Below are positions 1-5,255 of a stretch of 5,255 nucleotides of DNA, one piece after another. The notes below the pieces were generated by a model that had not been told where the DNA came from, did not search any database, and worked only from the letters and a program-made list of their open reading frames with translations. Both the position numbers and the translations under genes were made by a program. Source of the stretch: a virus (lineage: Duplodnaviria; Heunggongvirae; Uroviricota; Caudoviricetes); the IMG/VR virus record IMGVR_UViG_2695420564_000007, positions 1 through 5,255 of that record; one strand, given 5' to 3'. Positions within the stretch are counted from its first letter, which is position 1, and each line of letters opens with the position of its first letter.

Positions 1-89
1 ACCTGCCGAATCAGCATTAATGGAATCAACAACAGTAATACAGCGCCAAACAGGGTAGCTATCTTCCAGAACAGGGGGGATTTCAACAT
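1..89 (-). CDS. creD: Inner membrane protein CreD-like, first 29 codons only (gene runs off the window start)
   Basis: Reverse complement of 1..89 reads ATG TTG AAA TCC... = MLKSPLFWKIATLFGAVLLLLIPLMLIRQ, a hydrophobic signal-anchor N-terminus matching my recollection of E. coli CreD (MLKSPLFWK...). AGGAG-type RBS sits 6-10 nt upstream on the minus strand (plus ~96-101). Too short for the six-frame track. Confidence 0.5.
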   Translation of the reverse strand, partial: MLKSPLFWKIATLFGAVLLLLIPLMLIRQ

Positions 90-163
90 AGTCTTCTCCT
101 TTGCAATAGCGGCAGTTTATTTCATCAGAGTTTTTCTCTCGCCTGATTACAAATTTTGTCGTC

Positions 164-308
164 TTAAAAAGTGATACAGGTTGCGCCCTGTTCGGCACCG
201 GACAGTTTTTCGCGCAAGGCACTGAATAACTCACGTCCTGTTCCCACGCGTGACGCGCTCAGGTCAGGGATGTGCGGTTCACGAGCGGCCAGTTCCGCTT
301 CGTCTACC
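164..308 (-). CDS. C-terminal ~47 codons of an unidentified protein (...LFSALREKLSGAEQGATCITF*), cut off upstream by the NNN at 309-311
   Basis: Minus-strand frame is open from the NNN down to a TAA at 166..164 and reads VDEAELAAREPHIPDLSASRVGTGRELFSALREKLSGAEQGATCITF*. Protein-like composition, but I cannot place the family and it does not resemble a histidine-kinase C-terminus as expected for creC. Confidence 0.25.
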
Positions 309-416
309 ANNNGCCGAATCACGGTCGTTGCGCTACCTACTAGAGTTGAAATTTTCTATCTCAAAACGAATTATTCTGTTTTCGCCCATATAAAAAATAT
401 GTATGCGGAAAGTGCT

Positions 417-2159
417 TTAAAGTAACCAGCCGCGCTCATGTTTCCTGTCGGAGACGCGTGTTCGTGCATATTCCTCGCGCTGCCATTCGTCCCAGGTGCG
501 ATTAAAACCCAGCGAGCGGAACAAATGATCCGGCTGTTTTTCTGGTGTATTGACGGCAGCAAAAAGCGGTGCCTCACGGGTTTTCAGATGAAACAGCATA
601 AGTTCTGGCGCAGGGCGTGCCGGACTGTCAGCATCGTGGTTTACCGCTTCACCATAACCGGCAAATCGTAAACCTTTGTCGGTCAGAGCATTGATTACCA
701 GCTGGCTGTTGTCGGCTGTGGGGACGGCAAACGCAGGATACAGCGTACCATTAAGCCGGACAACACCGCCCAGAGAGTCATCCACGCCCATGACCAGCAA
801 AAGCTGAAGCTGGCGGGTTTCCCGGTCGACAGAACTCATTACCGGCATCAGCGTCGGTGGCAGACGTCCCTGCGTAAAATCCACCTTCCTTGCTGCCAGT
901 GATGGCATGGCTGGCTGGCGGTCTTCTCCAAGACAAAAAGACTCCGGCCATGTCTTCGGCTGGCGGAGATTGCGGGTATGTTGCGGCCATGTCTGGCAAA
1001 CCTGCGTCAGAAGTTGCTCAAAGGTCGCAGAGGAATAAACACGTTGCAGTGGTGGATGTTGACCGATTTCGCTTCGGTCACAGATATAACCACTCCTGTC
1101 ACGCATTAAATCAACACGCTCAAAGATCCTGGTGCGGTATTTCTCCAACTCGTTCCCCCAGAGCGTATATTCTCCGTTCCGGTTGTGAAGCAGAAGGTAA
1201 CAGGTCATTTCCCAGTTACCAGGCATAGGGGCCTCGCCATACCCCGTAACGACTGCGCTCAGTACCCCTGAATCCATAACGGCATTGTCATTTTTCCTGA
1301 GCTGTTCCGCTCGTCGCTCCGCGCGACTACGTTCTGTATCCTCCTGCTCCTTCCTGCGTAATTCCTCTTCACGTTTAAGCAACTGGGCTCTGAGAGCTGC
1401 AAGGCTGGATGCGGCCCACTGCTGCCACTGTTTTTCAAATGCCGTCTGACTCGCGGGAATGTCCTGTTTCTCCACCTTCCGGTAATGCTGTCGCAATTTT
1501 TCCATTTGCTGGCTCAGAGACTGGATTTTTCCCTGCTCACTACGGTATTCCGGTGCCGCCCATTGCATCAGGGGAATACGGGAAAAACCGGACGAAAACG
1601 GCGATGATTTTTTCAGGCTGGCAGCATGGCTCATCGCTTCCTTTCGTTCGGTGTTCAGCTCTTCCCAGCGTCTGCGCGTCGCCTGCATATCTGCCATCAT
1701 CGACATGGCATTACTGGTGAGTTTCCATGCCGCATTACTGTCCTTCGGCAACGCTTCGATGATGTCACGTAGTGTGTACGAAGTTGCGTTGTCAGGAAGC
1801 CCGATATTCAGAAGGTTAGCCACACGGCGGGCTGGCTCTGTCAGCCCGCCGTTCCTGAGTTCGGTGCGGGAAATCTGTATTTCCAGGTTAAGCCTGTTAA
1901 TCAGACGATTCTGTTCGCCGCGTTCTGTTTCGATACCACGTGTTTCCATCGCACAGGCAGACTTTCCGAGGTGAATACCCGGCGTTTTCTCAAGCCCCTG
2001 TCGCTCGTATGAACGATGGTCTATCTCTTCCTGATAACCGGCGTTCGCCAGTGCCCTGTTTGCATGGTCAGCCCATGATGCCCGCCACGCCTCAGCATGT
2101 GTCCGGTCGTTCCAGTCCCTGACCTTTCCGCCNATCTTCTCCATTAAAAAGAGCGCCAC
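417..2159 (-). CDS. MobA/MobL-family (MobQ-type) relaxase-like protein, N-terminally truncated: relaxase-domain tail, long coiled-coil, C-terminal domain of unknown function
   Basis: 580-codon ORF (GTG start at 2159, TAA at 419..417). Residues 10-70 (DWNDRTHAEAWRASWADHANRALANAGYQEEIDHRSYERQGLEKTPGIHLG) match the conserved block after motif III of MobA/MobL relaxases such as Agrobacterium TraA (...LALAGLEVRVDARSY..GIE..PT.HIG). The catalytic Tyr and HxDxxxxHxH motifs that should lie ~150 aa upstream are absent; a stop lies 2 codons upstream of the start. A Q/E/R/K-rich coiled-coil (about aa 200-290) follows. One codon is ambiguous (N at 2133). Confidence 0.55.
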   Translation of the reverse strand: MALFLMEKXGGKVRDWNDRTHAEAWRASWADHANRALANAGYQEEIDHRSYERQGLEKTPGIHLGKSACAMETRGIETERGEQNRLINRLNLEIQISRTELRNGGLTEPARRVANLLNIGLPDNATSYTLRDIIEALPKDSNAAWKLTSNAMSMMADMQATRRRWEELNTERKEAMSHAASLKKSSPFSSGFSRIPLMQWAAPEYRSEQGKIQSLSQQMEKLRQHYRKVEKQDIPASQTAFEKQWQQWAASSLAALRAQLLKREEELRRKEQEDTERSRAERRAEQLRKNDNAVMDSGVLSAVVTGYGEAPMPGNWEMTCYLLLHNRNGEYTLWGNELEKYRTRIFERVDLMRDRSGYICDRSEIGQHPPLQRVYSSATFEQLLTQVCQTWPQHTRNLRQPKTWPESFCLGEDRQPAMPSLAARKVDFTQGRLPPTLMPVMSSVDRETRQLQLLLVMGVDDSLGGVVRLNGTLYPAFAVPTADNSQLVINALTDKGLRFAGYGEAVNHDADSPARPAPELMLFHLKTREAPLFAAVNTPEKQPDHLFRSLGFNRTWDEWQREEYARTRVSDRKHERGWLL

Positions 2160-2440
2160 CGTTTACAGTTATATCAGTATTCTCTTCTGGAGAATCAGGT
2201 GAACTCGTTGTACCACCACTGTTATCTGTTACCAAATCCCCGGTACTGCCTTTTAGACTGCGGCCGCACATAGCGATCCGGCTGACTGGCTGCAGGATAT
2301 TATGGGGCCACCAACCGCTATGGCACGATTTCACTGGCCAGTGCTGCCAGCCAGGCCGGACTGACCTGGGAAGGGCAGGCACACTCAGCGATCGCCGACG
2401 CACGGATGGCGGTGTACATCGAGGATGCCGCCTGAACCAN

Positions 2441-3088
2441 TCAGACGTTGACTGGTTGCGTCTGGCAAAAGTTAAAGACCTGACGCCCGGCGAACTGACC
2501 GCTGAGTCCTATGACGACAGCTATCTCGATGATGAAGATGCAGACTGGACTGCGACCGGGCAGGGGCAGAAATCTGCCGGAGATACCAGCTTCACGCTGG
2601 CGTGGATGCCCGGAGAGCAGGGGCAGCAGGCGCTGCTGGCGTGGTTTAATGAAGGTGATACGCGTGCCTATAAAATCCGCTTCCCGAACGGCACGGTCGA
2701 TGTGTTCCGTGGCTGGGTCAGCAGTATCGGTAAGGCGGTGACGGCGAAGGAAGTGATCACCCGCACGGTGAAGGTCACCAATGTGGGACGCCCGTCGATG
2801 GCTGAAGATCGCAGTACGGTGACGGCGGCAACCGGCATGACGGTAACGCCAGCCAGTGCGTCCGTAGTGAAAGGGCAGAGCACCACGCTGACCGTGGCAT
2901 TCCAGCCGGAAGGCGTAACCGACAAGAGCTTTCGTGCGGTGTCTGCGGATAAAACAAAAGCCACCGTGTCGGTCAGTGGTATGACCATCACCGTGAACGG
3001 CGTTGCTGCAGGCAAGGTCAACATTCCGGTTGTATCCGGTAATGGTGAGTTTGCTGCGGTTGCAGAAATCACCGTCACCGCCAGCTAA
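2441..3088 (+). CDS. V: Lambdoid major tail protein V, C-terminal fragment including the Ig-like (Big_2) domain; N-terminal ~30 codons missing
   Basis: Frame 2 reads [36 protein letters not shown]...FRGWVSSIG...[18 protein letters not shown], which I recognise as lambda gpV. Similarity begins right after the N at 2440; the upstream in-frame sequence is unrelated. The track ORF 2456..3088 uses an internal TTG. TAA at 3086..3088. Confidence 0.8.
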
Positions 3089-3103
3089 TCCGGAGAGTCA
3101 GCG

Positions 3104-3535
3104 ATGTTCCTGAAAACCGAATCATTTGAACATAACGGCGTGACCGTCACGCTTTCTGAACTGTCAGCCCTGCAGCGTATTGAGCATCTTGCCTGGTTGA
3201 AAGAGCAGGAAAAAAAGGCTGAATCCAGTGGCAACCTGCAGGTGTCTGTAGAGGATCTTATCAGAGGCGGGGCGTTTCTGGTGGCGATGTCCCTGTGGCA
3301 TAACCATCCGCAGAAAACGGGGTCACCGTCAATGAATGAGGCTGTGATGCAGATTGAGCAGGAAGTCCTGACCACCTGGCCTGCTGATGCCATTGCCCGG
3401 GCGGAAGATGTGGTGTTGCGTCTGTCCGGGATGAGCGGGCTTGTTCATGTGGATACGGATATTACCGAAGTGGCGAAAAATAACGCGCTGACTGATGATG
3501 ATTTTTCTGCGGGAAAGTCTTCGACGGCGAGCTGA
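3104..3535 (+). CDS. G: Tail assembly chaperone G (lambda gpG homolog), apparently intact
   Basis: 143-codon ORF, ATG at 3104 with a GGAG RBS ~9 nt upstream. Begins MFLKTESFEHNGVTVTLSELSALQRIEHLA... and contains AFLVAMSLWHNHPQKT, as in lambda gpG. Ends ...FSAGKSSTAS* with the slippery heptamer near the 3' end, as in lambda. Confidence 0.9.
   Translation: MFLKTESFEHNGVTVTLSELSALQRIEHLAWLKEQEKKAESSGNLQVSVEDLIRGGAFLVAMSLWHNHPQKTGSPSMNEAVMQIEQEVLTTWPADAIARAEDVVLRLSGMSGLVHVDTDITEVAKNNALTDDDFSAGKSSTAS
3511..3517 (+). other. -1 programmed ribosomal frameshift slippery heptamer G_GGA_AAG for G to GT
   Basis: GGGAAAG at 3511..3517, in the X_XXY_YYZ register relative to the G frame (gcG GGA AAG), 6 codons before the G stop. 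The -1 frame is open from here to 3975. This is the known arrangement for lambda G/GT. Confidence 0.8.
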
Positions 3536-3975
3536 ATTTTGCCCTCAGACTGGCGCGTGAGATGGGGAGGCCTGACTGGCGCGCCATGCTTGCCGGGATG
3601 ACATCCACCGAATATGCCGACTGGCGACATTTTTACCGCATGCATTATTTTCACGATACCCAGCTGGATATGCATTTTTCCGGGCTGACGTACGCTGTAC
3701 TCAGCCTGTTTTTTTGCGATCCGGATATGCATCCCTCTGATTTCAGTCTGCTTGTCCCCCGGCATGAGGAAGAGCAGGTGGAGAGGCCGGATGAGGACAA
3801 AATGCTGATGCAGAAAGCGGCAGGACTTGCCGGAGGCGTCCGGTTCGGTGGGGACGGAGGGCGCGATATTTTATCGTCTGCGGATGTGGCGGATGTCATG
3901 GTGGATGATGCCGCATTAATGGTGGCTTCAGCGGGGATTTCCGGAGGTGTGAGATATGTCCCAGCCGGTTGGTGA
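3517..3975 (+). CDS. T: T portion of the tail assembly chaperone GT fusion (lambda gpT homolog), made only by -1 frameshifting from G
   Basis: -1 frame relative to G reads VFDGELNFALRLAREMGRPDWRAMLAGMTSTEYADWRHFYRMHYFHDTQLDMHFSGLTY...GGVRYVPAGW*. No independent start or RBS at the 5' end (track ORF 3562..3975 starts at an internal Met). Stop TGA at 3973..3975. Confidence 0.8.
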   Translation, partial: VFDGELNFALRLAREMGRPDWRAMLAGMTSTEYADWRHFYRMHYFHDTQLDMHFSGLTYAVLSLFFCDPDMHPSDFSLLVPRHEEEQVERPDEDKMLMQKAAGLAGGVRFGGDGGRDILSSADVADVMVDDAALMVASAGISGGVRYVPAGW

Positions 3976-4048
3976 TCTTGTTATTGACCTTAGTCTGGAT
4001 GCGGTCCGTTTCGATGAGCAGATGAGCCGGGTAAGGCGTCATTTTTCA
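3956..4048 (+). CDS. H: Tail tape-measure protein H, N-terminal 31 codons only; truncated at the NN at 4049-4050
   Basis: ATG at 3956 overlaps the T 3' end by 20 nt and reads MSQPVGDLVIDLSLDAVRFDEQMSRVRRHFS, close to the lambda gpH N-terminus as I recall it (MAEPVGDLVVDLSLDAARFDEQMARVRRHFS). After the NN the frame encodes unrelated sequence and the antisense strand becomes nuoM. Confidence 0.65.
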
Positions 4049-4050
4049 NN

Positions 4051-4148
4051 AGCGCTATCCAGCGCGGCACCTTGACGCCAAAGCGTTCGGTCTGCCAGCA
4101 CAGGAAGCCGCCGATAAAGGGAATCAATATTAGCCAGGGTAGTAACAT
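4051..4148 (-). CDS. nuoM: NADH-quinone oxidoreductase subunit M, N-terminal ~33 codons only
   Basis: Minus-strand ATG at 4148..4146 reads MLLPWLILIPFIGGFLCWQTERFGVKVPRWIAL, matching the E. coli NuoM N-terminus from memory. The reading frame is cut at the NN (4049-4050), where lambdoid H sequence begins on the opposite side. Confidence 0.6.
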
Positions 4149-4196
4149 GGCGATCTTTATTCCTTGTAAAAGTCCCGTCAGGACCGGATTTTCAAC

Positions 4197-4691
4197 GAAT
4201 TCTCAGACGCGCTGGCAAAAGTGATGCCGTCTGACATCCCGCTTAAACACCGTCACTGGCTGGGCCTACAAATGCTGGAAGGCGATATTTACAGCCGTGC
4301 CTATGCCGGTGAAGCGTCGCAGCACCTGGATGCCGCCCTCGCCCGTCTGCGTAATGAAATGGACGATCCGGCATTGCACATTGCTGATGCCCGCTACCAG
4401 TGCATTGCAGCTATCTGTGATGTGGTAAGCAACACTCTGACGGCAGAACCCAGCCGTTTTACTACCGCGGTGGATAAAATCGTGCTTAACCGTTTCCTCG
4501 GTCTGCCGATTTTCCTGTTCGTCATGTACCTGATGTTCCTGCTTGCCATCAACATCGGCGGAGCATTACAGCCACTGTTTGATGTCGGTTCTGTGGCGCT
4601 GTTTGTACATGGTATTCAGTGGATTGGCTACACACTCCACTTCCCGGACTGGCTGACTATCTTCCTCGCCCAGGGGCTTGGCGGCGGTATT
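4197..4691 (+). CDS. feoB: Ferrous iron transporter FeoB, internal fragment (linker/helical region and start of the membrane domain); G-domain and most of the membrane domain absent
   Basis: Plus frame reads ...SDALAKVMPSDIPLKHRHWLGLQMLEGDIYSRAYAGEASQHLDAALARLRNEMDDPALHIADARYQ...VDKIVLNRFLGLPIFLFVMYLMFLLAINIGGALQPLFDVGSVALFVHGIQWIGYTLHFPDWLTIFLAQGLGGGI, typical of FeoB at the start of its transmembrane core. It has no upstream GTPase domain (upstream is nuoM antisense) and stops matching FeoB after ...GGGI at ~4691. The left boundary (4197-4203) is approximate. Confidence 0.7.
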
Positions 4692-4923
4692 CGAGGTACC
4701 TCTTTCGTTCCTTTCAGGATGAACGTGTAATTGCCCGGCGTATTGTTTTTCATCAGACGAAACGCGACGTTATCGACAAACGAATAGGTCGAAAGCTCAG
4801 AAAGATCGCGACACATCAGAGTAAAGTTGTGACCGTCCGGCAGCTGACGAATACGACAAATGCGCTCCATTGCGTTTTTATCTTCAATTTTACAACCGAG
4901 CGCATAGCCGGAATCGGTTGGAT
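4692..4923 (-). CDS. yciO: YciO (Sua5/YrdC/YciO family) internal fragment, roughly residues 30-105
   Basis: Minus strand reads YPTDSGYALGCKIEDKNAMERICRIRQLPDGHNFTLMCRDLSELSTYSFVDNVAFRLMKNNTPGNYTFILKGTKEVPR, matching E. coli YciO from memory. Flanking residues on both sides do not fit YciO, and there is no start or stop of its own. Confidence 0.6.
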
Positions 4924-5255
4924 ATCGCATGGGTTGCCGCCTCACGGGCTGATGTGCTGGCATCGCCGGCTGACTTCTTCGCGGCTGCCGTGTTCTGTGC
5001 CACCGCAGACGCGTTACGCGCCACCTCTTCCACCATCAGTTCAAAACGGCGCAGTGCCTCAGGACGGGCAATGATAAACAGAATCATGGCAATGAGCGGA
5101 CCACTTATCGCGTAAATCATTGAAATAGCATTCGGGTTGATACAGCAGATGATAAAGGTAATCAGCGATACCAACATAATGGATAGTGCGCGGTTAAATG
5201 ACCGGCTTTTTTTAATCCCTACCTGTTGTAATGTTGTTTTGACAACTTCAGTTGC
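4924..5255 (-). CDS. Unidentified membrane protein, N-terminal region (about 40 hydrophobic residues followed by an Ala-rich helical segment); runs off the window end
   Basis: Minus frame is open from 5255 and reads ATEVVKTTLQQVGIKKSRSFNRALSIMLVSLITFIICCINPNAISMIYAISGPLIAMILFIIARPEALRRFELMVEEVARNASAVAQNTAAAKKSAGDASTSAREAATHA. The hydrophobic stretch then helical segment looks like a real membrane protein, and is loosely reminiscent of chemoreceptor cytoplasmic helices, but I cannot assign a family. The track ORF 4890..5177 is the same frame from an internal ATG; its last ~10 codons run into the yciO fragment. Confidence 0.3.

Follow-up and report, generated by a model that had tools for sequence, protein, structure and literature searches.

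The locus described here raises the question of whether a relaxase gene without its catalytic end is a natural short gene or the product of a break in the sequence that carries it. It concerns an open reading frame (ORF) at 417-2159, minus strand, of a 5,255-nt stretch recorded as a virus of the Caudoviricetes (IMGVR_UViG_2695420564_000007, positions 1 to 5,255), the whole of which is called the window below. According to the ORF listing, it encodes 580 aa and starts with GTG. A preliminary description made from the sequence alone had seen in it either a 5'-truncated MobA/MobL relaxase gene within a mosaic, or a naturally N-terminally deleted relaxase remnant. The first of these readings was borne out: apart from its first codons, the ORF lies on a plasmid segment flanked by N marks, its parent protein has 719 residues and residues 1-148 are gone. 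Window 313-2132 is very probably a 1.8-kb piece of a MOBQ41-type plasmid, placed between unrelated DNA in a patchwork and carrying the 3' four-fifths of mobA. The ORF is thus no novel type of protein but part of a broken gene, and both this gene and the plasmid family to which it belongs are already known.

The relaxase fragment and its parent plasmid

The Pfam model MobA_MobL (PF03389) matched ORF residues 12-74 only, and hence within the first 80 residues, where such a match had been anticipated (E 8.9e-18; 65.3 bits for a cut-off of 26.7). These residues corresponded to profile positions 162-224 of 224, i.e. to a domain fragment covering the last 63 positions. Likewise, the NCBIfam MobQ equivalog model was matched over its last 45 profile positions only, with 43 bits against a cut-off of 200. 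Since both matches were confined to the profile ends, the ORF encodes the tail of the relaxase fold alone, which is followed by ~500 further residues. The IDHRSY block begins at ORF residue 46, in agreement with the ~40 preceding residues reported earlier, and the stop reported within 6 nt upstream was found as an in-frame TAA at 2163-2165, one codon before the GTG (read from the sequence).

Among all complete Escherichia coli genomes (megablast), one record alone, the 5,093-bp plasmid pGCUET01-4, extended over more than 80 % of window 300-2500. Window 313-2132 was 99.9 % identical to it over 1820 nt, with two mismatches and no gaps (three-way alignment and local blastn), which is far above chance. 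The matching block occupies positions 2008-3827 of the plasmid. pGCUET01-4 belongs to a group of 5,093-bp E. coli plasmids together with pYU39_5.1 and pB16EC0698-1; the latter was found in PLSDB, where this plasmid type is classified as mobilizable, MOBQ and rep_cluster_1778. About 330 further plasmids covered at least 80 % of the segment, the majority being ~4.07 kb long and ~95 % identical. One relative, pSF-468-4, displayed 95.6 % DNA identity and, like pYU39_5.1, is listed in Table S2 of PMC6856555. Similarity of the window to the 4.07-kb plasmids ended at ~422, some 110 nt earlier than similarity to the 5,093-bp plasmids. Outside the window, positions 1368-1859 (minus strand) of pGCUET01-4 hold a hypothetical gene of 163 aa with no Pfam match, which is part of the ~1 kb size difference between the 5,093-bp MOBQ41 plasmids and the 4.07-kb ones.

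The mobQ coding sequence of pGCUET01-4 comprises 2,160 nt and 719 codons for amino acids (WP_032347464.1), and its end at plasmid position 2112 corresponds to window position 417. The window retains its 3' 1,716 nt, that is codons 149-719 and the stop codon, at 417-2132 on the minus strand, and 570 of the 571 residues were identical to WP_032347464. One of the two mismatches causes the single amino-acid change, G391S, and the other is silent. Plasmid DNA located 3' of mobA accounts for 313-416, within the same 99.9 %-identical block. In the full-length protein, Pfam MobA_MobL extended over residues 18-213 (profile positions 2-224). What is left of this fold in the window is residues 149-213 (1938-2132, minus strand), with the last helices including IDHRSY...HLG and none of the catalytic residues.

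The MOBQ4 relaxase family and its MOBQ41 subgroup were defined by Garcillan-Barcia et al. 2019 (PMC6856555). According to that study, MOBQ41 plasmids are small and cryptic and encode a Rep_3 initiator, MobA, MobC and one hypothetical protein, with a 178-bp origin of transfer (oriT) between mobA and the divergent mobC. MobA nicks oriT and stays on the transferred strand, MobC assists, and the type IV secretion system of a helper plasmid exports the complex. The relaxase acts preferentially in cis, and the best mobilisers were the MPF_I helpers R64drd11 (IncI1) and pCTX-M3 (IncL/M). Our parent plasmid was found to match this backbone, given its Rep_3 initiator (Rep3_N and Rep3_C domains), a divergent 84-aa gene (4450-4704), a gap of exactly 178 nt between this gene and mobQ (4272-4449) and its typing as MOBQ and mobilizable. 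Table S2 of PMC6856555 lists pYU39_5.1 (5,093 bp, subgroup 1) with relaxase WP_032347464. As this is the accession found on the matched plasmid, the gene in the window is the MOBQ41 relaxase already described. Many database entries give the relaxase 748-753 aa, from an upstream in-frame start (MRTYTISTPFRLCAPCGAERKPQKGITAE-), while RefSeq uses the 719-aa MAIYHLS start; the upstream stretch of the longer calls overlaps the 178-bp oriT region.

The part removed contains all catalytic residues assigned to MOBQ41 in PMC6856555, namely Y25 (motif I), E87/E89 (motif II) and H125/H133/H135 (motif III). The parental sequences AAYRSG (from residue 23, with Tyr25) and HHMDKTNPHAHIM (from residue 125, with His125/133/135) are not encoded in the window, which holds residues 149-719 only. 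The preliminary description was therefore right that the catalytic tyrosine and the histidine-triad motifs are not encoded upstream. Because blastn of the whole parent plasmid returned only the block at 2008-3827, the 178-bp oriT and mobC are absent from the window; the same search placed the Rep_3 replicon outside it. An oriT near the gene, which the earlier description had proposed to look for, thus exists in the parent as a 178-nt region and is missing here. Devoid of residues 1-148, oriT, mobC, promoter and start codon, the copy in the window cannot act as a relaxase.

Nor does the relaxase gene extend to the start of the ORF, as had been supposed: the relaxase tail is present, but relaxase sequence ends at 2132 and not at 2159. 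The first nine codons of the ORF (GTG, ALFLMEK and X) occupy 2133-2159 and are not alike to the parent plasmid. The GTG and the codons VALFLMEK (2134-2159, minus strand) stem from unrelated DNA, and this start is spurious. No Shine-Dalgarno motif was seen before the GTG when the sequence was read, and a promoter and terminator scan around the ORF gave no more sites than expected from shuffled sequence. The 580-aa frame is open by accident, with a GTG borrowed from the neighbouring fragment.

Junctions of the patchwork and rival readings

Plasmid identity ran from directly after the NNN at 310-312, which marks the left edge of the plasmid-derived segment, to 2132, the next position (2133) being a single N. 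At this N the relaxase gene is interrupted precisely at a codon boundary, with codon 148 the last one lost and codon 149 the first one kept. N marks were also found at 2440 and 4049-4050, so that four breakpoints display one to three Ns and the others none. Further breakpoints were located near 112, 2255, 2412, ~4190, ~4693, ~4925, ~5010 and ~5070. Over its full length, from 1 to 5255, the window is pieced together from stretches of ~57 nt to 1.8 kb that lie inside genes not linked to one another. Positions 113-309 hold the end of edd (residues 553-601 of 601) and the start of kdgA, both chromosomal and ~95 % identical. Positions 2255-2412 partially matched, as two separate stretches, a 3'-5' exonuclease gene of a plasmid, and lambdoid tail genes (V', G, T, H') with ~87 % identity to known phages make up a block at 2441-4048. 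After 4051 follow nuoM codons 1-33, feoB residues 191-348 of 772 (91-92 % DNA identity), a TsaC-like fragment (26-104 of 202), 57 nt of a tail-fibre gene (N-terminal piece) and a fragment of a serine/threonine transporter. Another piece presumably encodes a CreD-like N-terminus. The loci of these pieces are not neighbours in E. coli, and every piece starts or ends within a gene. Since all other parts of the window are internal pieces of unlinked genes, the truncation was regarded as a mosaic junction and not as a natural short relaxase.

The chromosomal pieces at 113-309 and 4212-4691 reached at best 95.4 % (edd/kdgA) and 92.3 % (feoB) in 5,426 complete E. coli genomes, the plasmid piece reaching 99.9 %; either their source is an Escherichia other than E. 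coli, or a close relative, or else they were altered. In the tail block, GGGAAAG was found at 3511-3517, shortly before the lambda-G-like ORF (3104-3535) ends and the T-like frame (3562-3975) follows. In position and sequence it corresponds to the known -1 programmed frameshift site of lambda G/GT, and would be a candidate for it. The ~120 nt at 2134-2254 adjoining the relaxase cut are open in two frames, one minus-strand reading being ...GDLVTDNSGGTTSSPDSPEENTDITVNGGALFNGED.

A natural origin of the break had nevertheless to be weighed. A MOBQ41 piece might have recombined into a genome with deletion of the 5' end of mobA, in which case 2133 would be a true in vivo joint and the gene a relaxase pseudogene. 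Integration or capture of small plasmids does occur, enterobacterial genomes commonly contain truncated mob genes, and the cut falls on a codon boundary, although chance alone would place it there in one case out of three. However, the plasmid segment is bounded by N marks on either side, its neighbours are short internal fragments unlinked in E. coli, and at least nine further breakpoints occur in 5.2 kb. No match across 2132/2133 was found in complete E. coli genomes or PLSDB plasmids. The flanking 129 nt (2134-2262) remained unmatched by sensitive blastn in the 5,426 complete E. coli genomes, PLSDB and a phage collection, as well as in two exact-pattern scans of 185,579 GTDB representative genomes. 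Reading of the sequence revealed no insertion sequence end, att site or repeat at the joint. We consider such a pseudogene very improbable, although the N at 2133 may formally be an ambiguous base within a real recombination joint. This point, together with a patchwork that may stem from chimeric assembly, scaffolding of short contigs or deliberate construction, weighs against our placing of the plasmid piece in a mosaic.

The ORF could also correspond to a genuine shorter protein, a C-terminal mobA product made from an internal in-frame start as in sog (SogL/SogS) or RSF1010 mobA/repB. The sog precedent, in which SogS arises by internal reinitiation, speaks for this, and so does the homology of the C-terminal domain of MobA to the part of Sog kept by SogS. 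Yet the start codon of the ORF is not plasmid sequence, and no start codon was present at parent residues 140-150, where the sequence reads ...GPAGFGGKVRDW. The best 120 of 464 homologs were all 715-801 aa long with 99-100 % query coverage; none of them was of the shorter length, which speaks against the natural remnant proposed earlier, and none began naturally at the position of the ORF start. Of nine homologs that were aligned, eight have their first residue at MAIYHLSMKIISR or before it; the remaining one, P0155, begins with MKIISR, seven residues further on. The short entries of the representative library proved to be fragments from various places in the domain. The missing Shine-Dalgarno motif and the chance-level promoter scan point the same way. 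With a start that is not plasmid-derived and homologs that are full-length, a natural short isoform was rejected as very unlikely. Least probable of all was an arrangement as in RSF1010 MobA-RepB', where relaxase and primase are fused and the primase would be the C-terminal domain. It is suggested by the homology of the C-terminus to a protein annotated 'SogL DNA primase', but the shared part is SogL 947-1247, and MobA contains nothing equivalent to the Toprim domain of Sog (266-365). Neither the ORF nor the full-length protein was matched by a primase or Toprim model of Pfam or NCBIfam. The fusion was rejected, the homology lying outside Toprim_3 of Sog and no Toprim match being obtained.

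The mosaic junction accordingly was retained as the explanation of the truncation. The break thus belongs to the patchwork and not to biology; it would be wrong to treat the window as a single locus or to annotate the 580-aa ORF as a protein.

Central linker and Sog-like C-terminal domain

Downstream of the relaxase remnant, residues 214-438 (1263-1937, minus strand) form a charged and mostly helical linker, as judged from the AlphaFold2 model and composition. Long helices were predicted at full-length residues 278-323, 342-370 and 373-435 with low confidence (mean predicted local distance difference test score, pLDDT, of 59). Glutamate, glutamine, arginine and lysine together accounted for 36 % of the sequence between residues 215 and 435, and for 46 % between residues 373 and 435. 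The long Q/E/R/K-rich coiled-coil announced in the preliminary description hence stood as regards helices and charged composition, while a coiled-coil was not demonstrated at this pLDDT. In an alignment, most of the region was missing from P0177, a related relaxase of 615 aa; the region therefore behaves as a variable linker.

The C-terminal domain, residues 439-714, is intact in the window (435-1262, minus strand). Left unassigned in the preliminary description, it could now be placed as the C-terminal module of Sog primases, based on BLASTP and PLSDB matches. MobA 439-714 was 44 % identical to SogL 947-1247 of 1255 (E 1e-70). Identity was unevenly distributed: it amounted to 81 % over residues 589-690 (102 residues; window 507-812, minus strand), the core of the domain, and to 32 % over residues 439-588 (~150 residues). 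At the DNA level, window 528-767 was 83-85 % identical to sog of ~1,300 conjugative, mostly IncI-type, plasmids in PLSDB. In one of them, p15A44 (IncI-gamma/K1, MPF_I), the match was at the extreme 3' end of sogL. A sharp step in similarity was apparent between window 507-812 and the 3' end of sogL (about 4980-5285 of our sequence L003), with ~84 % DNA identity over 240 nt. As far as sequence can tell, this step suggests that the core alone may have been exchanged fairly recently between IncI helper plasmids and MOBQ41 plasmids.

The Sog domains DUF5710, Toprim_3 (residues 266-365) and LPD7 all lie upstream of the shared region, for which reason homology to Sog does not imply primase activity. 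The MobA-SogL link itself is not new, as PMC6856555 already mentions 'low homology' of the MOBQ4 C-terminus to SogL primases, with no function assigned.

No Pfam model matched the C-terminal domain, and a HMMER scan of 1.84 billion cluster representatives returned 77 domain members only. The long members were either MobA_MobL relaxases (three) or Sog-type primases (12) and nothing else, and in every long representative the match ended within ~25 residues of the C-terminus. AlphaFold2 modelled the domain as mostly beta (mean pLDDT 81, predicted template modelling score 0.68). Foldseek searches of this model against PDB and BFVD gave no match at E <= 0.001, with TM-scores of at most 0.3. Matches below this threshold included HIN-200, RPA70 and LEF-3, which display DNA-binding folds of the oligonucleotide/oligosaccharide-binding (OB) type and offer a weak lead only. 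Nothing below E 0.06 was obtained with the C-terminal 290 aa against PDB chain sequences. In the C-termini of P0123, P0125, P0128, P0129, P0131, P0132, P0168 and P0177, a conserved ...H/P-S/A-PGR tail was observed. This tail is found in many Sog-type proteins and in the distant MobA_MobL relaxase P0177; MOBQ41 MobA, including the copy in the window, ends in ...ERGWLL. Endings of the form ...SPGR or ...APGR were noted in many Sog-type proteins and in two distant relaxases. The differing tails may represent a lineage-specific terminal signal.

In an intact MobA, the Sog-like module would recruit the relaxase to the MPF_I machinery, or else act on the transferred strand as Sog does. We infer such an MPF_I role from the restriction of the domain to two kinds of exported, MPF_I-associated proteins, from the delivery of SogL and SogS and from transposon sequencing (Tn-seq). 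Both SogL and SogS, the latter without the primase part, are exported to the recipient according to the literature. Tn-seq of an IncI1-like plasmid scored the SogS part of sog at 1.00 as 'required for transfer' and the whole SogL ORF at 0.74. Tentatively, core 589-690 could then be a portable recruitment or translocation module for MPF_I conjugation systems (IncI/IncL-M, Dot/Icm-like), fairly recently acquired by small MOBQ41 plasmids from the Sog protein of the helper, i.e. a case of substrate mimicry by a parasitic plasmid. Its recent transfer is supported by 81 % protein and ~84 % DNA identity, in comparison to 32 % protein identity for the rest of the domain. Several points count against this proposal: docking or translocation would be a role deduced for the module, the Tn-seq score could reflect polar effects on downstream tra genes, and the weak OB and HIN fold matches suit a DNA-binding role equally well. 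In the window, no function is expected of the module, as it is detached from the catalytic domain, oriT, promoter and a genuine start codon.

A wider point is raised by the C-terminal domain of the parent gene. This domain occurs in no other proteins than MOBQ4 relaxases and Sog primases, both of which are passed through conjugation machines of the IncI type, and contains a sharply more conserved core of 100 residues, with no structural relative in the PDB and BFVD searches. Should this core dock to MPF_I, it would explain why these cryptic plasmids, which are very common, accompany IncI1 resistance plasmids.

Comparison with known systems

RSF1010/R1162 MobA (MOBQ1; PDB 2NS6) displays the same relaxase fold and catalytic Tyr/His arrangement as the full-length parent (PMC6856555), a catalytic part of which the window contains nothing. 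In RSF1010, MobA is joined to a primase (RepB'), whereas the MOBQ4 C-terminus is a non-primase Sog module.

Closest to the gene described here is MobA of the pYU39_5.1 / pIGWZ12 type. Residues 149-719 are the same in the window except for G391S, and the backbone of the parent plasmid is the same as well. In contrast to MOBQ41 MobA, the copy in the window is a fragment without the three relaxase motifs, oriT, mobC, promoter and true start.

With SogL/SogS of R64 and ColIb-P9, the parent shares a homologous module, which in both cases forms the extreme C-terminal end of a protein passing through an MPF_I conjugation system. The two differ in what precedes this module, which is DUF5710, Toprim and LPD7 in Sog, and a relaxase domain followed by a helical linker, with no primase domain, in MobA.

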